DNA from: a virus
Taxonomy: Duplodnaviria; Heunggongvirae; Uroviricota; Caudoviricetes
Length of the DNA: 14,388 bases
IMG/VR virus record: IMGVR_UViG_2693429700_000020
Reading direction: 5' to 3' (one strand)
The position numbers and the translations under genes were made by a program. The notes beneath the pieces were generated by a model. That model ran no database searches. It was given only the letters and a program-made list of their open reading frames with translations, and was not told the DNA's origin. Below are positions 1,724 through 12,943 of the stretch, piece by piece (position 1 is the stretch's first letter; each line of letters begins with the position of its first letter).

Positions 1724-2316
1724 TGATTACCATCCTGACGTTCTTTGAGTCGCTTCCTGGCTGCCGCTATGCGATCAGCAATTGTCACATTCACATTAAC
1801 ATCCAGGCGTTCTTTGAACGCGTTGACATCAACATGCTTACCAATCAGCTCAAGGTTCTTCACCTTGTCAGGCCATTTAATTTTTTTGAGGATTGTCTCT
1901 ATCGAATCCTCGTTCATGTTCATGATGGTCGATGACAGATCAAAGCCACTAAGCGTAGTGCGCCAGATTTTCGGCCACTCACGGATAGGTTTAAGGCTCC
2001 CATCGTCGTTGAGGATGTCGATCACGTCCATCTGGTCGATCTCCACTAGGCGCATGAGAACGTAATCAGCACTGACGCGCATTCGTTTGTTGCGCTCCTC
2101 CATCAACTCGGCAATCCGTTTTTGAATGCGTTCATCGCGCATCATGACACTGGCTTTAACTGCCGCTGTATTTGGGGAGAATCCTGCGTTAATCGCTGCC
2201 TGAGTCTGGTTTTCAGGCGTTTTGATGTATGACTGGCAATAAGCCTCCTGCATTGCTGTGAGCGGCTTAAATTGCGTTGATTTGCGTTTATAGGTTTTAG
2301 GTTCAGCAGGCATCAT
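1720..2316 (-). CDS. terS: Phage terminase small subunit (Terminase_2-like)
   Basis: Translation from the ATG pair at 2316/2313 (MMPAEPKTYKRK...LTAMQEAYCQSYIKTPENQTQAAINAGFSPNTAAVKASVMMRDERIQKRIAELMEE) matches the recalled small-terminase pattern. The 26 codons upstream in the track ORF are the translation of operator repeats and are not believed to be coding. GGTGG ribosome-binding site before the ATG. Confidence 0.8.
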   Translation of the reverse strand: MMPAEPKTYKRKSTQFKPLTAMQEAYCQSYIKTPENQTQAAINAGFSPNTAAVKASVMMRDERIQKRIAELMEERNKRMRVSADYVLMRLVEIDQMDVIDILNDDGSLKPIREWPKIWRTTLSGFDLSSTIMNMNEDSIETILKKIKWPDKVKNLELIGKHVDVNAFKERLDVNVNVTIADRIAAARKRLKERQDGNQ

Positions 2317-2348
2317 AACCACCGTGGTAATAGTTACCGTTGTGGTAA
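2316..2348. promoter_or_regulatory. Two adjacent operator-like palindromes (TAACC-accgt-GGTAA 2316-2330; TTACC-gttgt-GGTAA 2334-2348) abutting the terS start codon
   Basis: Same 15-bp TTACC-N5-GGTAA palindrome as in the immunity region; centres 18 bp apart; the first overlaps the terS ATG. Confidence 0.6.
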
Positions 2349-2354
2349 TAGTAA

Positions 2355-2386
2355 CATGCAAAATAAAGCCGCCATAGTTGGCGGCA
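2355..2386 (-). terminator. Rho-independent terminator after the 2391-2618 ORF, immediately before the terS operator sites
   Basis: Minus-strand reading gives GCCGCCA-acta-TGGCGGC followed by TTTATTTTG. Confidence 0.65.
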
Positions 2387-2390
2387 GTAT

Positions 2391-2618
2391 TCAAAGTCCA
2401 TCAAATTCATCGTAAAAACTCTCGTCAAGATACCCTTCCCATTTACCGCGAATGAAAATTACATCCTCGCCGCAAGGGTGCTGACTGTCGATAACTATAT
2501 CCCTCCTGGCGCAACCATACTTATGCATGAGAAATTTAACCTCTTTCGGAAAATTTGCTGAGTTATCTCTCATATCTTCAAGGTCGTAGCGTATTTTTGG
2601 CATAACACCTCGTGACAT
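2391..2618 (-). CDS. Hypothetical small protein (70-75 aa); start ambiguous between ATG 2618 and ATG 2603
   Basis: The ATG at 2618..2616 sits at the centre of the GTGACATGTCAC palindrome; the ATG at 2603..2601 is preceded by GAGGTG. No family recognised. Confidence 0.45.
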   Translation of the reverse strand: MSRGVMPKIRYDLEDMRDNSANFPKEVKFLMHKYGCARRDIVIDSQHPCGEDVIFIRGKWEGYLDESFYDEFDGL

Positions 2619-2624
2619 GTCACA
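2601..2624. repeat. Copy 2 of the conserved block with the 12-bp perfect palindrome GTGACATGTCAC (2612-2623)
   Basis: CATAACACCTC-GTGACATGTCACA; overlaps the stop codon of the 2620-2958 gene and the first ATG of the 2391-2618 ORF. Confidence 0.8.
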
Positions 2625-2958
2625 CTATTAATTTCGTTTCATGCCAACCTTTGGTCACCCAGCATTGCGAGTCACCATTACACGGGCATGAATTCACAGG
2701 AACTCTCTCGCCGCACTTACCGCAACGTTTTCTGCTGATCGATTTTATACGCCCGCGCACGCGTGCATCATCCTGGCGGATCAGTAACGCTATATACTCA
2801 CCAAATTCGTAAGGCGCACGCCCGGGGCGACGCGTGGCACAGTTACGCTCCAGCATTTCAATTTCCTGAGCATCAAGCACAATTTCCAGCTTACGCACAC
2901 CAGATGCAGCTTGTCTGGCTCTCTGAGCGGCTTTGCGCTCTGATGCTGATTTAGCCAT
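2620..2958 (-). CDS. Hypothetical basic protein with C-terminal Cys cluster (CGKCG...CPCNG...C), possible zinc-ribbon DNA-binding regulator
   Basis: ATG at 2958..2956 (the track ORF begins one codon earlier at TTG 2961); Lys/Arg-rich N-terminus and CxxC / CxC / C motifs. No confident family assignment. Confidence 0.5.
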   Translation of the reverse strand: MAKSASERKAAQRARQAASGVRKLEIVLDAQEIEMLERNCATRRPGRAPYEFGEYIALLIRQDDARVRGRIKSISRKRCGKCGERVPVNSCPCNGDSQCWVTKGWHETKLIV

Positions 2959-3232
2959 CAATATTTACCTTTATCGCGAACACTTTTACCGGTTTATCAC
3001 CGAAGTGGGGGTGTGTGATTGTTTTCACTTCATATCCTCCATACGGAACATCAATTCTGCAACTGGAGTCGTCGCGCTTCGGATATCCCTTTGTGATAAT
3101 CAGGCGGTCATACTCCCGGAACATAATTCGCTTATTCCAGTAGTCATTACACAGGCGATACTCCTCGGTTTTCTCGCCACGAATCATGGCATCGAAGTAT
3201 TCACCTTTTACGGCAAGTTGCAGGTTAGCCAC
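2951..3232 (-). CDS. ASCH/PUA-like domain protein (DUF3850-like)
   Basis: GTG start at 3232 preceded by AGGAGG; N-terminal LQLAVKGEYFDAMIRGEKTEEYR resembles the ASCH signature as I recall it. Confidence 0.5.
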   Translation of the reverse strand: MANLQLAVKGEYFDAMIRGEKTEEYRLCNDYWNKRIMFREYDRLIITKGYPKRDDSSCRIDVPYGGYEVKTITHPHFGDKPVKVFAIKVNIDG

Positions 3233-3509
3233 GACCTTCCTCCTTTGGCTTGTGAATTTGTATCGTCATGCCGCTTTGAGTGGTGACTACAATGACAGAA
3301 CCAGGCTGAAGGCTGTTAAGATTGAATGCTTCGTAAAACGAATCCAATGCCAGTGCTTTTTTATTCTTTCGGTTCCACCAACGCCATCCCTTGCTACAGG
3401 CTACACTGACAATCCACTGCCCACTCCTGTAAGCCATATAAAACCAGATGAGCAAAACCTGAAGGAAGGCCATCCAGTCAATAATCGTATATTTCGCGAA
3501 GGAGTCCAT
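3225..3509 (-). CDS. Small predicted membrane protein (about 94 aa)
   Basis: ATG at 3509..3507 overlaps the stop of the upstream gene (ATGA-type coupling); hydrophobic segment IIDWMAFLQVLLIWFYMAY. The track ORF 3225-3656 extends further upstream in-frame, but that extension overlaps the preceding gene. Confidence 0.5.
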   Translation of the reverse strand: MDSFAKYTIIDWMAFLQVLLIWFYMAYRSGQWIVSVACSKGWRWWNRKNKKALALDSFYEAFNLNSLQPGSVIVVTTQSGMTIQIHKPKEEGRG

Positions 3510-4309
3510 CAATTCACCTCCTGCGGCGGTTCTGGTAGCGGCATCCAGAACAAGACGTTCCCTAACCACGATAAAGTGCCGTCGCTCAACTCCACGTATT
3601 CCCCTTGTACCTGTCCTGCCATATACTCGCCGTGCTTTGAATAAATTAAAATCCAATCATCTTGAGCGGGCATTCGCTCACTACAGCTTATCCAACCATC
3701 CTGAGTTACCGGAGAGTTGCCATTTACATCGAAGTTTGGCTCTGCGTCCTGAACCAGGAGGATGTAACCATTCTTGGCAGTATCAAGTTCTAACGCCTCG
3801 GTGACGGTGCCGAAATAGCGATTACCTAAATCAGCATCACAAGTGCTTACATCAATGGAAACTTCCATGCCTTCGATTAATTCTGGCAAGTTGTAAGTTT
3901 GGCTTACAGGTTGGCTACCCTGACGCATGGCAGCGTGGCAGGCATCCTCTACGCCCTTAACTGCATCTGCGCAGTAGTTATAGCGATTGCATTCCACTAA
4001 TTTCTGCTTGAAGTTTTCAATTGCTAACTCGATTTCATCCGGCACTACCGGCTCTGGTTGGATAGTGACGTTGGCAAAGGCAGCACGCAAACCGGCCTTA
4101 ATTTCCTCTACTTCATCAGCGCCTAGCGATGAATCTGACAATGCGTGATGGAATGCGTATGCCATGTCGTCGTTTACTGCAACCGGCTCTGCTTCCAGCG
4201 ACGCCAGAGCAATTTCATAAGCACGACGCTCAATATTGTCTCGCACGTCCAGGCTGCCTATGCGCTCTTTGATTTCTTTAATCAGTTCTTTGTCGGTAAA
4301 AGTGGTCAT
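3509..4309 (-). CDS. Ea22-like N-terminal region fused to a DUF551-like C-terminal domain
   Basis: ATG at 4309 with AGGAG ribosome-binding site; N-terminus shares the SLEAEPV motif with the 4585-5061 paralog; C-terminus has WISCSERMP...WMPLPEPP, typical of DUF551 prophage proteins as recalled. Confidence 0.6.
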   Translation of the reverse strand: MTTFTDKELIKEIKERIGSLDVRDNIERRAYEIALASLEAEPVAVNDDMAYAFHHALSDSSLGADEVEEIKAGLRAAFANVTIQPEPVVPDEIELAIENFKQKLVECNRYNYCADAVKGVEDACHAAMRQGSQPVSQTYNLPELIEGMEVSIDVSTCDADLGNRYFGTVTEALELDTAKNGYILLVQDAEPNFDVNGNSPVTQDGWISCSERMPAQDDWILIYSKHGEYMAGQVQGEYVELSDGTLSWLGNVLFWMPLPEPPQEVN

Positions 4310-4319
4310 GTGTTACTCC

Positions 4320-4583
4320 TTAACCCGCAGTGCTTTCAACTGACGAGGGGAATAAAATCGTTTCATCAAATCCGGCATTCATATCATGAACAGCAGCACA
4401 CCAATCCATTGACGAACGATTATCAAGAGCCTCCATGATTTCATCCATGCGGCGTAGGTCATACAGGTAAATGTTTTTATCGCCAATGGTGTAAAAGCCA
4501 ATTTTTTTCGGCGATGGACAGCGATCAAGAACGTCCTGTAAGTCGTTCAACCATGCCCGTTCTTTTTTTGTCAAAGTTGTCAT
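4320..4583 (-). CDS. Hypothetical phage protein (87 aa)
   Basis: ATG at 4583 with AGGAGAG ribosome-binding site; tightly packed in the operon; no family recognised. Confidence 0.5.
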   Translation of the reverse strand: MTTLTKKERAWLNDLQDVLDRCPSPKKIGFYTIGDKNIYLYDLRRMDEIMEALDNRSSMDWCAAVHDMNAGFDETILFPSSVESTAG

Positions 4584-4584
4584 A

Positions 4585-5061
4585 TCACTCTCCTTTGATG
4601 CCTATATTTACAGCCAGGCAAGCTTCTTCGAGCACCCAGTCAACAGCGTCTTTCCACGCACCAGTCCCAACTGGCGGATTCTCATTTTTTACCTGCTCAT
4701 AAAAACGCACCGCTTTAACCAGTCCTTCAGGCACTACAGGTACTGGCAAGGCAGCGTGACAGTAGAGTGGCATAGTTTTGTACAGGGGGGCGCCAGGACT
4801 TCCGTCAACCTGATTCCATTCTTCAACCCAGGCATCAACAACCGCTTTGCTGGTTGATACATGTTCTTCTGAATCTACATTTTGTCCTGATATACAGAAC
4901 ATAACTGGCTCTGCTTCCAGTGATGCGTCCAATACATCAAGCAATGCCAGTACAACCTCCGGCGTAGCCGCAGCATGAAAAGCCTGTAGGTTCTGCCACG
5001 TCGTCTCCTCCTTCGCGACCTCTGCCGCCTCTCGCAGTGCCTGATAGTCAATCTTGCTCAC
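4585..5061 (-). CDS. Ead/Ea22-like family protein
   Basis: GTG start at 5061 with AGGAGG ribosome-binding site; N-terminus MSKIDYQALREAAE... and PEVVLALLDVLD match the recalled Ead/Ea22-like pattern. Confidence 0.6.
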   Translation of the reverse strand: MSKIDYQALREAAEVAKEETTWQNLQAFHAAATPEVVLALLDVLDASLEAEPVMFCISGQNVDSEEHVSTSKAVVDAWVEEWNQVDGSPGAPLYKTMPLYCHAALPVPVVPEGLVKAVRFYEQVKNENPPVGTGAWKDAVDWVLEEACLAVNIGIKGE

Positions 5062-5302
5062 TGGTTGCCTCCTGCTTTTCTGCCTTCAACACCATGCGAG
5101 AACCATCATCCAGCTCCCACGCGATCTCACCACCTTCAGCCATGACCAGTCGCCACACCAATTGAGCAGCCTCATTGGTAACATCACGACCTGGATCATT
5201 GCCAACGCGCATACGTCCACCTTCAACATCGCGCATTTTTGCCAGCATGATAGTTTTTGATAGCGGTGAAAAACCAAGCTGTAGTCGTGCTGAATTACTC
5301 AC
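5048..5302 (-). CDS. Hypothetical phage protein (84 aa)
   Basis: GTG start at 5302 with the same AGGAGGCAACCAGTGAG initiation region as the 4585-5061 gene; overlaps the neighbouring stop. Confidence 0.45.
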   Translation of the reverse strand: MSNSARLQLGFSPLSKTIMLAKMRDVEGGRMRVGNDPGRDVTNEAAQLVWRLVMAEGGEIAWELDDGSRMVLKAEKQEATSEQD

Positions 5303-5832
5303 TGGTTGCCTCCTTTGCGAAGCTCAGCGGCGAAGGCTACTGCGTGATCATGATGTTCAAGTGTGTATGCGCACTCAGCAAACATCTCCACGCCCTGCGC
5401 TCGTACTTCAGCCAGGAAAGCGTCGGTGGCTGGGGTGTCTGATTGCAGAGACTTTGCGCGATAGTCATTCCACCCTCTTGCATACATGGGATTAACTTGC
5501 ACTCCATCTTTTACGCAATATGCCTGCCCTCCACGGTTGATAACCTTGATTTCGTCCATAGCGCCAGACTTCAGCCCCGCATTCTCCGCCGCCAGCGCTG
5601 AAAACTTCTCGTGTGCCAACTTAACAGCTGCATCAGCCTGCTTAATTGACTCAATCGCTTTCTGCTGGTCTTCGGCCAGCGCATTAGCACGCACCAGTTG
5701 CACTTCCAGTTGCGTTGCCAAATCGCTGATCAGCTTTGCCACACTACGCATATCAACGGCACCACATTCTGCTTTCAGTTCCGAAGCCATCTCATGCCCG
5801 GCGGAAACTAACCCTTTGATATTACTTTCCAT
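5299..5832 (-). CDS. Coiled-coil phage protein, possibly Ea22-like
   Basis: ATG at 5832 with GAGGG ribosome-binding site; Ala/Glu/Lys-rich helical N-terminal half plus a globular C-terminal half. Confidence 0.45.
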   Translation of the reverse strand: MESNIKGLVSAGHEMASELKAECGAVDMRSVAKLISDLATQLEVQLVRANALAEDQQKAIESIKQADAAVKLAHEKFSALAAENAGLKSGAMDEIKVINRGGQAYCVKDGVQVNPMYARGWNDYRAKSLQSDTPATDAFLAEVRAQGVEMFAECAYTLEHHDHAVAFAAELRKGGNQ

Positions 5833-5893
5833 CTTTACCCTCGCTTATCCACATAACTTATTGATTACATTGATAACTAAAAAGATCGTCGAT

Positions 5894-6238
5894 TCAGAAC
5901 TCTTCGATGTTCCAGCCACCACCTGCTTTCTTTGGTTTAACCGTTACCCCGATGATTCGGAACGGATATTGATCTGCGGCGACTTTGGTTTTCACCCTGG
6001 CGTCGTCGGTCCAGAAACCTTTCACTTCGTGCAGTTCCATCTCGCCGGTGGCGAGCATCACAGCAAAATCGGGCGTATAGAACGTGTTGTCAGCTAACCG
6101 CAGCTTGAGACCCTCGAATCGATACCAGGCGATTTCCCCTGCACGTTTACGCTGCTCAAGGTGCTGGCAATACGCAGATTCTGTTTTGTTCATCTGGCCT
6201 GTTTTGAGTCGACCAAGAGCCTGTATCTGTTTTCTCAT
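5894..6238 (-). CDS. DUF1064-like protein (PD-(D/E)xK-like fold)
   Basis: ATG at 6238; motifs TPDF ... ELHEVKG fit the DUF1064 pattern as recalled; first gene after the internal operator-flanked promoter. Confidence 0.55.
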   Translation of the reverse strand: MRKQIQALGRLKTGQMNKTESAYCQHLEQRKRAGEIAWYRFEGLKLRLADNTFYTPDFAVMLATGEMELHEVKGFWTDDARVKTKVAADQYPFRIIGVTVKPKKAGGGWNIEEF

Positions 6239-6241
6239 GAT

Positions 6242-6318
6242 TTACCCCTGAGGTAATTAAAAACCACATAAGACACGAAATCAATAGATTTTAGTATATT
6301 TTATTACCCACCAGGTAA
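6242..6318 (-). promoter_or_regulatory. Internal promoter flanked by two perfect operators (TTACCCCTGAGGTAA 6242-6256; TTACCCACCAGGTAA 6304-6318)
   Basis: Minus-strand -35 TTGATT (6284..6279), 17-bp spacer, -10 TTTAAT (6261..6256); operator centres 62 bp apart, the same geometry as the early promoter at 9347-9423. Confidence 0.6.
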
Positions 6319-6330
6319 TCATCTAGACGT

Positions 6331-6350
6331 AAAAAAATGCGCTATCGCGC
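6331..6350 (-). terminator. Weak candidate terminator after the P-like gene (GCGC-gata-GCGC stem followed by seven U)
   Basis: Minus-strand CAGCGCGATAGCGCATTTTTTTAC; the stem is only 4-5 bp, so low confidence. Confidence 0.3.
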
Positions 6351-6355
6351 TGGTA

Positions 6356-7141
6356 TTACTTGATAAATCCTGCCGCCTTTCCCCGCCTGTATTCCTCCAT
6401 CAGCCACTGTGCCGGTGTTATTCCACCCAGGGTGGCGGCGTTAGGCATGCACCCGAAACTTCGCCCTGGCGGGTGGTAAACGTCTCTCCCTGTGTCCGGA
6501 GGCGTACTCATGGGTTCTGGCTTTGCCTGTATGCTGATCACCGGATCGGGTATCTGCTGTCCGGAAGCCACCTTTTTCGCCCAATCATCGAGCAACCTGC
6601 GCGCGTGTTTCTCAACCTCAATCTCGCTAAGCTGGCGCTGATACATTGCGCGGCGGGTATCACATACAACCCAGTACATAACCGGATGCCGCCACGGGAA
6701 TCTTTCGGGACCGCCAGGATATAAACTTTTTTCCTTGCTGTACCGGTGAAACTCCGCCATCACATCGTCAATGGTGACACCAAGAACCATCTTGCTGTCT
6801 TTGCACCACTTGATAAATTGCCCAGGCGACGGCCAGAACGGAGATTCACTGGCGCGGGCGTGGCGCATACCAGCAGAAACCTGTTCACGGGTTCGGATCC
6901 CACCTTCGGCAAACGCAGCAATCCACTGCTGTTTTGCAGCGACTTCCTGCTCTGGCGTCTTCAGGTTGGTTACCACTGCCGCCGGAAACAGTTGTTTCAG
7001 CTGTTTGAAAAGGGCATCAACAAGCCTCTCTGCTGACATGTTCACCACATTGTCATTGTTGACGTACTGATGCTCATAACCTGACATGCGAGAAAGGGCT
7101 TCTCCGTCACGGTTTTGTATCGCGGTAAAAACGTTGTTCAC
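6356..7141 (-). CDS. Lambda P-like replication protein (helicase loader)
   Basis: KQQWIAAFAEGGIRTREQVSAGMRHARASESPFWPSPGQFIKWC parallels the lambda P segment RRQWVLAFRENGITTMEQVNAGMRVARRQNRPFLPSPGQFVAWC (recalled). Likely GTG start at 7141 with GGGAGGA ribosome-binding site, overlapping the O-like stop (GTGA). Confidence 0.85.
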   Translation of the reverse strand: MNNVFTAIQNRDGEALSRMSGYEHQYVNNDNVVNMSAERLVDALFKQLKQLFPAAVVTNLKTPEQEVAAKQQWIAAFAEGGIRTREQVSAGMRHARASESPFWPSPGQFIKWCKDSKMVLGVTIDDVMAEFHRYSKEKSLYPGGPERFPWRHPVMYWVVCDTRRAMYQRQLSEIEVEKHARRLLDDWAKKVASGQQIPDPVISIQAKPEPMSTPPDTGRDVYHPPGRSFGCMPNAATLGGITPAQWLMEEYRRGKAAGFIK

Positions 7142-7953
7142 AAGAAATCCTCCCACGCTTCAGGGCTGTTCCAGTGCGGAACGTTGTTATCAGGTAATGT
7201 TGATTGCTTCTGTCTGCTAATCTGCAGCCGCCTTGCCAGCTTCTGCTCCCACTGTGCCTGATGGTATGCCTTACCCTCAGCCATCCAGTAAATTCTGAAT
7301 TCTGCAAGTTCCTGTGCCGTTGGCAGACTGTCCAGGTAGATTCCCTGCAATGAGCTTTTCCGAAGAAAGTCATCTGATGGTTGCCATTGTTCATGCATGA
7401 CAAATTTGCCTAATTGCCCTGGCCCACCAGGAGGAACAAAGTTATTCATCACGGCGTTGTTTGCGCCGGGGTCATGAGGCACAGAATCCCCGGTTTTTGT
7501 CCTGCTCTCCCTCTCTTGGTTAAATGACTGGTTATATGACTGGTTCTGGATCCCGTTTTTGGGATCATTCAACATCCCGTTTTTGGGATCATTCAACATC
7601 CCGTTTTTGGGTATATTCCCGTTTTCGGGAACATTACCGTTTTCGGGTTCATTACACCCTTCCCGGTTGCCTTTAATGTTCCCGTTTTTGGTTATATTAA
7701 GAGAGAAAACCCGCACTCTTTTCGTCGCTCCCTTTCTCTCTCCGGTATCTGAAATAAGCCCCATTTTCATGAGCGATATAAGCCCGGACTGCACGGTTTT
7801 TTTATTCAGGCAAGTGTCTTTAACGAGGCGTTCTATGCTGGGGTAGCAGAGGTTATATTCATCGGCTCTGTCAGCCATCGAGAGCAGTATGAGCTTTAAT
7901 GATGAGCTACCTGGGTCTGTCTCCCAGGCCCAATCTGTTGCATGTCTGCTCAT
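7138..7953 (-). CDS. Replication initiator (O-like): N-terminal helix-turn-helix domain, repeat-encoded low-complexity linker, C-terminal domain
   Basis: ATG at 7953 with GGAG ribosome-binding site; sits directly upstream of the P-like gene; contains the iteron array, as lambda O contains ori. Confidence 0.7.
   Translation of the reverse strand: MSRHATDWAWETDPGSSSLKLILLSMADRADEYNLCYPSIERLVKDTCLNKKTVQSGLISLMKMGLISDTGERKGATKRVRVFSLNITKNGNIKGNREGCNEPENGNVPENGNIPKNGMLNDPKNGMLNDPKNGIQNQSYNQSFNQERESRTKTGDSVPHDPGANNAVMNNFVPPGGPGQLGKFVMHEQWQPSDDFLRKSSLQGIYLDSLPTAQELAEFRIYWMAEGKAYHQAQWEQKLARRLQISRQKQSTLPDNNVPHWNSPEAWEDFL
7552..7692. repeat. Iteron-like direct repeats (candidate replication origin) inside the O-like gene
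   Basis: CCCGTTTT(T/C)GGG core at 7552, 7576, 7600, 7618, about 7636 and 7681 (periods 24, 24, 18, 18); two exact 24-bp units CCCGTTTTTGGGATCATTCAACAT; a second short repeat ATGACTGGTT at 7525 and 7537. Confidence 0.7.
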
Positions 7954-7968
7954 GATTAATCTCCGCTA

Positions 7969-8169
7969 TCAGCTTGAATGTTGTGGGGAGGAATTAATCA
8001 TGATCTGCTTAATCTCTGCCCTGATGCGACGGTTTGATTCCATGGTGCACTCAACACAGTGTCCGTTGTAAACCCAGCGTTCACTGTCATGTCCGTGCTT
8101 ACATGATTTTCCGGTGTAGTAGCGTTTAAGTCCGCGCTTTGCGGCATCAATACGTGTAATGATTTCCAT
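7969..8169 (-). CDS. Small zinc-finger protein, TraR/DksA-like C4 type (66 aa)
   Basis: ATG at 8169 (the track ORF extends to TTG 8232); C-terminal HCVEC followed by a basic helix resembles the TraR/DksA CVEC zinc-finger motif; occupies the lambda cII position. Confidence 0.4.
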   Translation of the reverse strand: MEIITRIDAAKRGLKRYYTGKSCKHGHDSERWVYNGHCVECTMESNRRIRAEIKQIMINSSPQHSS

Positions 8170-8249
8170 GGTAAGCCCTGTTATTAGTATTGGGATTACG
8201 GTTATTTTGTGCTGACACAAAAAAAAGATCAACCAGATTTGGTTTTTTA

Positions 8250-8264
8250 TTACCTTTAAGGTGC
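8250..8264. promoter_or_regulatory. Imperfect operator-like site TTACC-tttaa-GGTGC just downstream of the tR1-like terminator
   Basis: 8 of 10 specified positions match the TTACC-N5-GGTAA palindrome; the GGTGC half-site is the same variant as at 8618-8632. Confidence 0.4.
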
Positions 8265-8270
8265 GAATAG

Positions 8271-8298
8271 ATATGAAAAGACCGCCGGATGGCGGTCT
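8271..8298 (-). terminator. Rho-independent terminator after the Cro-like gene (tR1-like position)
   Basis: Minus-strand AGACCGCC-atcc-GGCGGTCT followed by TTTCATAT. Confidence 0.6.
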
Positions 8299-8319
8299 AC
8301 AGAGGTTTGTGGCTGGATA

Positions 8320-8550
8320 TCATGAGTAGAAGAAGTATGCCAGTTCTGCTTTTGAGCGCAGCCATTGTCTTGTTTTACAGGCTTTAAAAAGCCCATTCAT
8401 CAATACTTTACCTGGCATTTTGCGCTTACCTGTTAAGTGAGTCTGGATATAGTGACTCGTCGTTCCGGCTTCCTGTGCGAAGGCTTCACGCTCATCCGGA
8501 GTAAGTGCAAGCCAGTGCTTTTTGAAATCGAAATGTCCGTTATCGCTCAT
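8320..8550 (-). CDS. Cro-like small helix-turn-helix DNA-binding protein
   Basis: 76 aa; first gene of the minus-strand operon, divergent from the repressor; candidate HTH at AFAQEAGTTSHYIQTHLTGKR. Confidence 0.5.
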   Translation of the reverse strand: MSDNGHFDFKKHWLALTPDEREAFAQEAGTTSHYIQTHLTGKRKMPGKVLMNGLFKACKTRQWLRSKAELAYFFYS

Positions 8551-8586
8551 AGCTATTGCCTGATATTTATTTCAGATAATAAATAT

Positions 8587-8649
8587 TCACCCATAAGGTA
8601 ACAAAAATCAAGGATAGTTACCTATGGGGTGCATTTACCTGTTGGGTAA
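8587..8649. promoter_or_regulatory. Operator cluster between the Cro-like and repressor genes: TCACCCATAAGGTAA (8587-8601), TTACCTATGGGGTGC (8618-8632), TTACCTGTTGGGTAA (8635-8649)
   Basis: Three copies (one perfect, two near) of the palindrome in the divergent regulatory region; a minus-strand -35 TTGTTA / -10 TATTAT candidate overlaps the first site. Confidence 0.65.
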
Positions 8650-8704
8650 TATTGCTTTAAATTGAATCATCTACTGATTCATATATGAGGCGATTCTCCA
8701 GAAA

Positions 8705-9289
8705 ATGAAAAGTATCCAGGACGTCCGCAGGCAAAATCTCAACGACTTGATCGACCGTGAATTCAATGGTGTTCAGACGCGGATGGCAGAAAAACTTGGA
8801 ACTCAGGCAAATCTGGTAAACCGCTGGGCTCTTGGCAAGAAGGTTATCGGCGACCAGGTTGCGCGAAAAATTGAAGCTGCCGCCAATAAACCCCGTAACT
8901 GGCTTGATATCGATCGCTCGCTTTCTCAGGAGGGGTTTCAGCCTGTCGGCCCAAGCGACATTGGTCAGCTGGCGGCTCACAACCTGGAACGCTGGATGAG
9001 CGAAAGCCGCGACCTTTCAACACAGGGAAAACTTCACCGCGCATCCGGCGTCGCCCAGGTGACAATCAGCCGCCTGTTAAACAATGAGGTCAGTGTTTCC
9101 ATTTCCACCCTGGAGAATGTTGCATCCGCATTCGGGCGTCACGGATATGAACTACTGATTCACCCGCATGACCCTGCAACTATCAACTATGACCGCTCGC
9201 GCTACGCATTGTTACCCGAAACCGAGAAAGCAAAGATCGAAAGTTACATTGAATTTGTCATCAACCAGAACGAAAAAAACAAACAATAA
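8705..9289 (+). CDS. Phage repressor (CI-like role) with two XRE-type helix-turn-helix domains and no S24 peptidase domain
   Basis: 194 aa; HTH-like segments QTRMAEKLGTQANLVNRW and LHRASGVAQVTISRLLNN; lies between the two operator regions like lambda cI; weak ribosome-binding site. Confidence 0.7.
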   Translation: MKSIQDVRRQNLNDLIDREFNGVQTRMAEKLGTQANLVNRWALGKKVIGDQVARKIEAAANKPRNWLDIDRSLSQEGFQPVGPSDIGQLAAHNLERWMSESRDLSTQGKLHRASGVAQVTISRLLNNEVSVSISTLENVASAFGRHGYELLIHPHDPATINYDRSRYALLPETEKAKIESYIEFVINQNEKNKQ

Positions 9290-9310
9290 AATCATATTTT
9301 TCAGTAAGTA

Positions 9311-9336
9311 AGCCGCCTTCTGGCGGCTTTTTTATT
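9311..9336 (+). terminator. Strong rho-independent terminator after the repressor gene
   Basis: AGCCGCC-ttct-GGCGGCT followed by TTTTTATT. Confidence 0.8.
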
Positions 9337-9346
9337 GCCTGTTCAA

Positions 9347-9423
9347 TTACCTAATGGGTAATTTTTTTAACTCATATCTATTGACATCAAACCAGATACG
9401 CATAATTATTACCTAAACGGTAA
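9347..9423 (+). promoter_or_regulatory. Early (pL-like) promoter flanked by two perfect operators (TTACCTAATGGGTAA 9347-9361; TTACCTAAACGGTAA 9409-9423)
   Basis: -35 TTGACA at 9381-9386; -10 within CATAATTAT at 9401-9409; operator centres 62 bp apart, the downstream one overlapping the -10 and start-site region. Confidence 0.7.
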
Positions 9424-12033: not shown

Positions 12034-12300
12034 ATGAACAAGGTTTCAATGCGCAGTCCGTCAAAGATTGTCGCCGTTACTCCTGCGGCGATAGAGATCG
12101 AAAAACGCGCGATTGAAAGAGAGAAAAAAGGGCAGTTCCGCATTGCCGCTCACCTTTGGCTTCAGTGTATGGATGTTGCTTCTGGTGATGTTGAGCGTGC
12201 AAGGATCGCGGTTCGCAGGGACCAATGTATCACAAAAGGTAACGGCCTTCGCCGTGGCGACTATAGCGGCATAGGATGTTGTGGGGTGGTTTATGACTAA
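12034..12300 (+). CDS. PerC-family transcriptional regulator-like protein
   Basis: RIAAHLWLQCMDVA ... ERARIAVRRDQCIT resembles the PerC signature as recalled; the most likely start is ATG 12049 (AAGG ribosome-binding site); the track ORF begins at 12001. Confidence 0.5.
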   Translation: MNKVSMRSPSKIVAVTPAAIEIEKRAIEREKKGQFRIAAHLWLQCMDVASGDVERARIAVRRDQCITKGNGLRRGDYSGIGCCGVVYD

Positions 12301-12943
12301 GAAATACACACTAATCTATGCAGATCCACCCTGGGCATACCGGGACAAAGCCGCAGATGGTAATCGCGGTGCCGGTTTTAAATATCCAGTTATGAGTGTG
12401 CTGGATATCTGCCGCCTTCCTGTGTGGGATTTGGCCGATGAAAACTGTCTGTTGGCCATGTGGTGGGTGCCAACACAACCACTCGAAGCACTAAAAGTTG
12501 TTGAAGCCTGGGGATTCCGTCTGATGACCATGAAGGGCTTCACGTGGATAAAATGTGGTAGTCGACAACCAGATAAACTGGTTATGGGTATGGGACACAT
12601 GACTCGCGCCAATAGTGAAGATTGCCTGTTTGCAGTTAAGGGAAAACTACCTCCGCGCATTAATGCAGGGATCGTTCAGTCATTTACCGCACCGCGGCTT
12701 GAGCATTCAAGAAAACCAGATATCGTTCGTGAAAAACTTGTGCAATTGTTAGGCGATGTTTCTCGCATTGAACTGTTCGCCCGCCAGTCGTCTCATGGCT
12801 TCGATGTTTGGGGTAATCAGTGCGAAGACCCGGCCGTGCAACTACACCCAGGATACGCGTTGGATATTGGCGGATTAACAAATGCATTCAGCAATGCTCC
12901 TCTGTCACCAACAGACAACCAGGGGCGGGAGCGTGCAGCATGA
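12293..12943 (+). CDS. MT-A70 family DNA N6-adenine methyltransferase, orphan (no restriction partner in the window)
   Basis: ATG at 12293 with GGGGTGG ribosome-binding site; N-terminal YADPPWAY catalytic motif; the track ORF starts at 12281. Confidence 0.85.
   Translation: MTKKYTLIYADPPWAYRDKAADGNRGAGFKYPVMSVLDICRLPVWDLADENCLLAMWWVPTQPLEALKVVEAWGFRLMTMKGFTWIKCGSRQPDKLVMGMGHMTRANSEDCLFAVKGKLPPRINAGIVQSFTAPRLEHSRKPDIVREKLVQLLGDVSRIELFARQSSHGFDVWGNQCEDPAVQLHPGYALDIGGLTNAFSNAPLSPTDNQGRERAA

Follow-up and report, generated by a model that had tools for sequence, protein, structure and literature searches.

The GenBank record of the Salmonella podophage epsilon15 (AY150271.2) lists seven 'protein_bind' features with the bound moiety 'repressor' (lysogeny), and all seven read ATTACC-N5-GGTAAT. 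For the Rep-Ant system of Salmonella phage SPC32H (PDB 5D50, 5D4Z), it is stated in secondary accounts that Rep binds palindromic sites as a tetramer, which is dissociated by the antirepressor Ant (PMC9638917), and that the protein comprises domains for DNA binding, for dimerisation (middle) and for tetramerisation (C-terminal, p53-like), the last with F187 and F190 in its interface (PMC9986798). According to these accounts, the two DNA-binding domains on one site stem from different dimers, and Ant is itself tetrameric (PMC9638917, PMC9986798). The repression mechanism of SPC32H Rep is described as little characterised (PMC9986798). Here we analysed a stretch of 14,388 nucleotides from a Caudoviricetes virus (IMG/VR record IMGVR_UViG_2693429700_000020; hereafter the window), in which the 15-bp palindrome TTACC-N5-GGTAA recurs, in perfect or degenerate form, at ten sites. 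It is very probable that these sites are the operators of a prophage immunity system of the epsilon15 type (genus Uetakevirus), with the protein encoded at 8705-9289, here called Rep, as the repressor.

Using megablast, we found that the window is the early, immunity and packaging part of a Uetakevirus (epsilon15/phiV10-like podophage) prophage. It shows 97.6% identity to phage vB_EcoP_PAS61, and phiv142-3, TL-2011b, ZX5 and phiV10 are also close. The initial annotation of the window had not recognised the half-site from lambda, 434 or P22 and suggested that the specificity may be undescribed. The half-site is unlike those operators because the immunity of this phage is not lambdoid; TTACC is the operator half-site of epsilon15-like podophages and is already present in the public annotation AY150271.2, so that this suggestion has to be withdrawn. 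The motif, the repressor family and the antirepressor induction route have all been described for epsilon15 and SPC32H, and what is seen here is this known repressor-operator system in the phiV10 lineage of E. coli prophages. The operator system itself opens no new question. The gains are an operator map for the phiV10 lineage, a corrected start of the small terminase subunit gene (terS) and two testable refinements, namely the 62-bp spacing of operators and a lineage-specific spacer base.

Comparison with described systems

Epsilon15 (gp38, AY150271.2) shares with the window the genus, the gene order and an identical dyad, ATTACC-N5-GGTAAT. Both have a pair of sites at terS, three sites between rep and the cro-like gene (gp39 in epsilon15), and 62-bp pairs before the leftward operon and after the replication genes. 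They differ in the repressor, which is 41-42% identical, in the left operator region (OL), which has two sites here and three in epsilon15, and in the middle site of the right operator region (OR), which is degenerate here and perfect there. Moreover, the spacers here favour a pyrimidine after TTACC and have a G+C content of 0.36, compared with 0.16. With the Rep-Ant system of SPC32H, the window shares the homology of Rep over its full length, the absence of a peptidase domain, aromatic residues at the positions that align with the tetramer interface and operators at the same places. The tetramer, the binding of DNA in trans and the release by Ant are described for SPC32H in the sources cited above and are predicted here by homology; ant and its LexA box lie outside the window.

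The arrangement also resembles that of CI and Cro in lambda. The repressor and cro-like genes diverge around a three-site OR (8587, 8618, 8635), a second cluster lies at the leftward early promoter, the operators overlap core promoters, and the dyads are symmetric with half-sites one helical turn apart. Unlike in lambda, the half-site has another sequence, Rep is without the S24 self-cleavage domain, and operators are found here and in relatives also at middle, late, lysis and packaging units, not only at PL and PR. The 62-bp pairs bracket a promoter here, whereas lambda has adjacent cooperative sites and a 2.3-kb OL-OR loop. Rco of the Bacillus plasmid pLS20 likewise has an N-terminal helix-turn-helix (HTH) and a C-terminal p53-like tetramerisation domain, which has been equated with the C-terminal domain of Rep, and is released by an antirepressor-type partner (PMC9986798). 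However, the tetramerisation domains have no sequence homology, and looping of DNA by Rep can be suggested by analogy only.

Recurrence and conservation of the palindrome

Six perfect copies lie at 2334-2348, 6242-6256, 6304-6318, 8635-8649, 9347-9361 and 9409-9423, as had been reported in the initial annotation, and its chance expectation of about 0.014 perfect copies (14388 x 4^-10) is correct. Dinucleotide-preserving shuffles (n=200) gave a mean of 0.01 perfect copies and never more than one, and none of the 200 reached six. As an empirical background, we took 100 kb of the E. coli chromosome next to a closely related prophage, which contained 0 perfect, 7 one-mismatch and 57 two-mismatch matches. 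Per 14.4 kb, this host background amounts to about 0, 1.0 and 8.2 matches with no, one and two mismatches, versus 6, 2 and 10 in the window. The perfect motif is not equally frequent in this host DNA, and chance or composition was rejected on the basis of the shuffles and the host-DNA control.

The recurrence at ten sites, as originally claimed, holds for the perfect class, which is far above chance; by count, the one- and two-mismatch class is at background. The mismatch numbers had been given correctly, with one at 2316-2330 and 8587-8601 and two at 8250-8264 and 8618-8632. Eight more two-mismatch matches (856, 1476, 1619, 1838, 2443, 2798, 3847 and 8426) are all located in coding sequence. 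With counts at background, we rejected the degenerate copies as statistically supported on their own and kept them on positional conservation. They are credible as weak sites because their positions are conserved in related phages, and a role of all four as weak operators is plausible from the alignments, with 2316 and 8250 being uncertain. The centres of the half-sites are 10 bp apart, i.e. one helical turn, which is the distance expected if two HTHs contact the same face of the DNA. A reading of the palindromes as hairpins or RNA structures was dropped, since the 15-mers fold at only about -2.2 kcal/mol.

Could the copies have arisen from AT-rich intergenic composition or from duplicated promoter cassettes, without any binding function? 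The cassettes of the PL-like and the internal promoter share an additional ATCTATTGA at the same offset and may be paralogous. Nevertheless, this explanation is hardly credible: shuffling did not produce the recurrence, the half-sites are invariant across phages that are about 79% identical in DNA or not alignable, while spacers and flanks change, and 120 viral loci keep the half-sites across more than 200 distinct 17-mers.

A scan of four complete relatives (phiV10, SPC32H, Tyrion and epsilon15) identified the same half-sites at syntenic places. These comprise a pair 18 bp apart before terS, one site before the portal operon, one or two sites in the divergent ant/tailspike region, one before the lysis cassette, often with TCACC, and one before int that ends in GGTAT. 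A pair 62 bp apart is found at OL, with a third site 76 bp further in epsilon15 and SPC32H, and another pair 62 bp apart follows the replication genes. Three sites with spacings of 17 and 30-31 bp lie between rep and the cro-like gene, and one weak site follows the cro terminator. The ten sites of the window are the subset of these that falls between terS and int. In a related prophage integrated at guaA (L006), the motif occurs in the same places, with 13 perfect copies in about 39.5 kb. The GenBank record of phiV10 lists terminators and no binding sites, and a full-text literature search for the half-sites together with a phage repressor returned primer matches only.

The sites are spread over five intergenic regions, each of which has a gene start or a promoter-like element beside it, and none is found in about 13 kb of coding sequence. 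This distribution bears on whether the palindromes might be something other than operators, for instance iterons for replication, a signal for packaging beside terS or the target of the phage MT-A70 adenine methyltransferase or of a restriction enzyme. One pair is indeed located directly at terS, where pac sites often are, the methyltransferase is encoded at 12281-12943, and unrelated viral contigs carry iteron-like arrays of TTACCGTTTTGGTAA with an 18-bp period. However, targets of a methylase or restriction enzyme should be scattered and a pac signal should occupy one locus only, and the iteron-like array of the window has a different sequence, ATCCCGTTTTTGGGAT (7550-7655). We therefore consider such a function very unlikely.

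The repressor Rep and its predicted mode of action

The plus-strand gene rep encodes the putative master repressor, a protein of 194 amino acids (WP_000836290.1) that is 100% identical to gp40 of phiV10 and, in global alignments, 41-42% identical to the repressors of epsilon15 and SPC32H. A phmmer search against the PDB identified it as a full-length homologue of SPC32H Rep (5D50_A, E 4e-42, residues 1-190 on 2-197), and its C-terminal half aligns to the middle and C-terminal domains of that protein. By this homology, Rep is predicted to consist of an N-terminal HTH DNA-binding domain, a middle HTH_3-like dimerisation domain and a C-terminal tetramerisation and antirepressor-binding domain. 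F187 and F190 of SPC32H Rep align with Y181 and F184, and the aromatic character is retained. Pfam gave HTH families only for Rep and no Peptidase_S24 domain; Rep thus does not have the C-terminal S24 peptidase domain of a lambdoid CI, and since this domain is absent, self-cleavage is not expected.

It has been reported that overexpression of ORF21 from phage ZX5, an open reading frame (ORF) with the same sequence as ORF40 of phiV10, lowers the endolysin and holin transcripts by 99.97-99.99% and free phage to zero; the study names no operators (PMC9782041). The initial annotation had proposed that one HTH regulator of the phage, most simply the repressor at 8705-9289, acts at the immunity region, an internal promoter and the terminase operon. 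This proposal is supported, because the epsilon15 motif is annotated at syntenic places, Rep is homologous to SPC32H Rep, and overexpression in the ZX5 study had the effect described.

Based on the homologues, two N-terminal HTH domains of Rep (recognition helix NLVNRW) would bind to one dyad of 15-17 bp, (A)TTACC-N5-GGTAA(T), and Rep would form a tetramer via the C-terminal p53-like domain, as secondary sources describe for SPC32H Rep. In a lysogen, Rep would occupy the operators that we located at nearly every phage promoter. Within the window, its targets would be a three-site switch of the PR/PRM type, the 62-bp pairs that bracket the PL-like promoter of the recombination operon and the internal promoter, and the 18-bp pair at terS; outside of it, relatives have operators also at the portal operon, ant/tailspike, the lysis cassette and int. 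The Cro-like protein would probably act on the same OR sites. Induction may proceed, as in SPC32H, via the LexA-controlled small antirepressor Ant. The Ant homologue of phiV10 (L002 20543-20800) is 88% identical to SPC32H Ant (L004 19676-19936), and a LexA box is located upstream of ant in phiV10 (CTGTATAAATACACAG), in the guaA prophage L006 (CTGTATAAATATACAG), in epsilon15 and in SPC32H. Within the window there is no LexA box, and the ant region lies outside it.

Ant, compared between phiV10 and SPC32H, and the Cro-like protein, which is 76% identical between the window and epsilon15, are far more conserved than Rep (41%). Judging by these identities, Rep evolves much faster than its partners and operators.

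In the viral contig L080 (5091-5874), an N-terminal domain of the Rep type (MKSIKEIRKENF..) is fused to a LexA/S24-like self-cleavage C-terminal domain, and two TTACC-N5-GGTAA sites are located just upstream of the fused gene. The DNA-binding module of Rep therefore also exists in a classical cleavable repressor.

Possible contribution of the Cro-like protein

Divergent from rep, on the minus strand, lies the gene of a Cro-like small regulator of 76 amino acids (8320-8550, WP_001282459.1). It matches phrog_35 'transcriptional repressor' (E 5.6e-13) and is the homologue of epsilon15 gp39; no Pfam or PDB sequence match was obtained. We scanned viral contigs for two perfect sites 47-77 bp apart, which resulted in 120 loci, 82 of which encode a Rep homologue with 30-100% identity. 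With the exception of the two most divergent, the 32 distinct motif-linked Rep N-terminal domains, which span 30-100% identity and belong to homologues gathered via the motif, all keep the recognition helix NL(V/I)(N/S)RW. Of 92 Rep-positive loci, 85 also encode a Cro-like homologue, and no locus with room upstream of rep is without one. Hence, co-occurrence cannot separate Rep from Cro.

Several observations weigh against the assignment of the sites to Rep. The Cro-like protein accompanies the motif no less consistently than Rep does and is more conserved (76% vs 41%), and sequence alone cannot assign the sites. Rep is only 41% identical to the characterised SPC32H Rep, and its binding here is predicted by homology. 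The operator assignment draws on the GenBank annotation of epsilon15 and on secondary citations. Furthermore, two-mismatch sites are about as frequent as in host DNA, and no recognisable -35 element is found upstream of terS, where a -10-like AACTAT lies between the two sites.

It is conceivable that the Cro-like protein, and not Rep, defines the specificity of the motif, with Rep binding something else or a subset of the sites. The protein belongs to a PHROG repressor family, it is 76% identical across two Rep lineages that share the half-site while their Reps are just 41% identical, and it is present wherever a locus has room beside the motif. On the other hand, a lytic-phase Cro at late, lysis and packaging promoters would silence genes that it needs; sites at these units make sense only for a lysogenic repressor. 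The epsilon15 record assigns the sites to the repressor, SPC32H Rep is stated in secondary sources to bind palindromic DNA (PMC9638917), and the Rep recognition helix is conserved in nearly all of the 32 diverged N-terminal domains that keep the motif. Moreover, overexpressed Rep silences the lysis genes (PMC9782041), which have such a site in front of them in relatives. We therefore regard a specificity set mainly by the Cro-like protein rather than by Rep as improbable. Likelier, and by analogy with lambda the most economical reading, is that Rep and the Cro-like protein share the OR sites.

Some contigs of the scan are without a Rep homologue in the stored locus. Five of them (L035 7251-7387, L021 7182-7277, L016 2743-2808, L114 7479-7592 and L059 1938-2117) contain tandem arrays of TTACCGTTTTGGTAA or TTACCRAATCGGTAA with periods of about 18-27 bp, reminiscent of iterons or of centromere-type repeats, so that the half-site also occurs outside Rep operators. 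In three low-GC contigs (L040 3793-3893, L068 589-688 and L095 3880-3982), likewise without a Rep homologue in the stored locus, the sites lie in promoter-like sequence, e.g. ttgacaTTACCAAAAGGGTAAtggtatagt. Their position between -35 and -10 suggests an unrelated repressor with a similar dyad.

Probable operators and promoters of the window

We aligned the intergenic region between rep and the cro-like gene from five genomes (A1), OL (A2) and the internal promoter (A3). In all three alignments the half-sites are invariant, while spacers and flanks vary. Read from the sequence, each unit has the same layout: the rho-independent terminator of the preceding unit, the distal operator, the -35, the -10, the proximal operator and the start codon. 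The last bases of the -10 run into the proximal operator, and the Shine-Dalgarno sequence lies inside or just after it, so that the start site and the ribosome-binding site are both covered. The distal operator is found about 60 bp further upstream, where it closely follows the preceding terminator. Promoter-like elements adjoin or overlap the sites, and Rep, if bound, would block RNA polymerase at each unit.

At OR, the site nearest rep (8635-8649) is perfect, and its half-sites are invariant in A1. The middle site (8618-8632), 17 bp away, has two mismatches (..GGTGC); its counterpart at this position in epsilon15 and SPC32H is perfect and has the same 17-bp offset. The site nearest the cro-like gene (8587-8601) has one mismatch, and its TCACC is kept in all five genomes of A1. 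It overlaps the core of a promoter-like TTGTTA-17-TATTAT that the promoter scan found on the minus strand upstream of the cro-like gene. A PR-like promoter that would serve the cro-like gene and the replication operon is placed at 8576-8611 (minus strand) by the promoter scan and by a -35, TTGATT, that is conserved in A1; the choice of hexamers is tentative. The region 8650-8705 contains no convincing Shine-Dalgarno for rep, which starts at 8705 (ctccagaaaATG), and a short upstream ORF starts at 8686. By analogy with lambda cI expressed from PRM, the rep mRNA may be leaderless or may initiate translation poorly.

At OL, the perfect distal operator (9347-9361) is located just 3' of the rep terminator (9310-9329; A2). 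The PL-like promoter, TTGACA-17-AATTAT (9381-9409, plus strand), is the best match in the window with 10 of 12 consensus positions; it lies exactly between the two operators, and its -35 (GTCAAT/TTGACA) is conserved in A2. The perfect proximal operator (9409-9423), whose centre is 62 bp from that of the distal one, adjoins the -10 and includes the expected start site. In phage Tyrion, gp39 (L005 34059-34271) is annotated on the opposite strand across the PL-like promoter and the two OL operators; it is probably a spurious gene call.

The internal promoter shows the same arrangement on the minus strand. A conserved GCGC..GCGC-T7 terminator (A3), which follows the lambda-P-like gene, precedes the perfect distal operator (6304-6318). 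The putative promoter (6256-6284), read from the sequence, consists of TTGATT (6284-6279), 17 nt and TTTAAT (6261-6256); both hexamers are conserved in A3, yet they score below the threshold of the promoter scan. The perfect proximal operator (6242-6256), 62 bp from the distal one, is followed after 3 nt by the ATG of the DUF1064 gene (5894-6238, minus strand), whose Shine-Dalgarno is provided by the spacer and the right half of the site (..AGGGGTAA).

The weak, half-degenerate site at 8250-8264 follows the cro terminator (8279-8298) and is located upstream of a promoter-like TTGATC-17-CAAAAT and a gene for 66 amino acids. At this position xxACC-N5-GGTAA is conserved in phiV10, Tyrion, epsilon15 and SPC32H; the function of the site is uncertain.

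Start of the small terminase subunit gene

TerS (Pfam Terminase_2, E 1e-29) is encoded on the minus strand, and in the annotations of phiV10, PAS61 and PGAP it starts at a TTG at 2394, giving 224 amino acids, the first 27 of which coincide with a terminator and the two operators. Epsilon15, SPC32H and Tyrion share the N-terminus MPAEPK, which points to the ATG at 2313 or 2310 as the true start, and we give the corrected gene as 1720-2313. The earlier statement that every copy of the palindrome is intergenic depends on this choice: it is right with a start at 2313 or 2310, but under the TTG start the sites at 2316-2348 would lie inside the annotated coding sequence.

The perfect distal operator (2334-2348) stands directly after the terminator at 2368-2385, and the proximal site (2316-2330), with one mismatch, adjoins the terS start codon. 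On the minus strand the latter reads TTACCACGGTGGTTA-TGATG, and its spacer GGTGG is the likely Shine-Dalgarno of terS. The position is conserved in five genomes, in which the half-sites decay variously (TTACT in epsilon15, TTGCT in SPC32H, GGTTA here) while the spacer GGTGG is kept. The terS unit may be transcribed with the help of an activator or by read-through of the 2368-2385 terminator.

Operator spacing and spacer lineages

Among the Rep-linked loci, whose Reps span 30-100% identity, 130 of the 146 distances between neighbouring perfect sites in the scanned range of 47-77 bp are either 62 bp (112) or 63 bp (18), and this spacing is found at two different promoters in each genome. Such a fixed distance suggests a constraint of helical phase. 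A single Rep tetramer might hold both sites at once, with the promoter enclosed in a micro-loop of about six helical turns.

The spacers also differ between repressor lineages. Counted over distinct 17-mers, the base after TTACC in loci with a Rep of the window type is T in 63%, C in 26% and A in 4%, with a spacer G+C content of 0.36; in loci with a Rep of the SPC32H type it is A in 42% and T in 35%, with a G+C content of 0.16, all of these counts being phylogenetically non-independent. Thus TTACCY..RGGTAA goes with the window-type Rep and TTACCW..WGGTAA with the epsilon15-type Rep. That both the fixed operator spacing, as a tetramer clamp, and the lineage-specific spacers, as a determinant of immunity, are real and undescribed is a rather doubtful proposition. 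If true, the spacer base may set immunity specificity between phages that share the half-site, the Cro-like protein and Ant.

Gene order and prevalence of the element

The minus strand carries the genes for the large terminase subunit (terL) and terS, accessory genes, the DUF1064 gene, the lambda-P-like gene, a DnaT-like gene, a small gene and the cro-like gene. Next, on the plus strand, come rep, the recombination operon (exonuclease, RecT) and AlpA-like, PerC-like and methyltransferase genes. The window closes with int, which is again on the minus strand. The immunity region is present at at least 95% identity in 561 of 5426 complete E. coli genomes, i.e. in about 1 in 10. Given this prevalence, the operator map may help in the annotation of prophages, the prediction of mutual immunity and the engineering of reporter phages of the phiV10 type.

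In the ATCCCGTTTTTGGGAT array, a palindromic unit recurs about six times at 7550-7655, with periods of 24 and 18 bp, and further units are found at 7517-7545 and at about 7680. The array is contained in the gene for the DnaT-like replication protein (7138-7953, minus strand), much as the iterons of the lambda origin are in gene O, and probably represents the replication origin of the phage.

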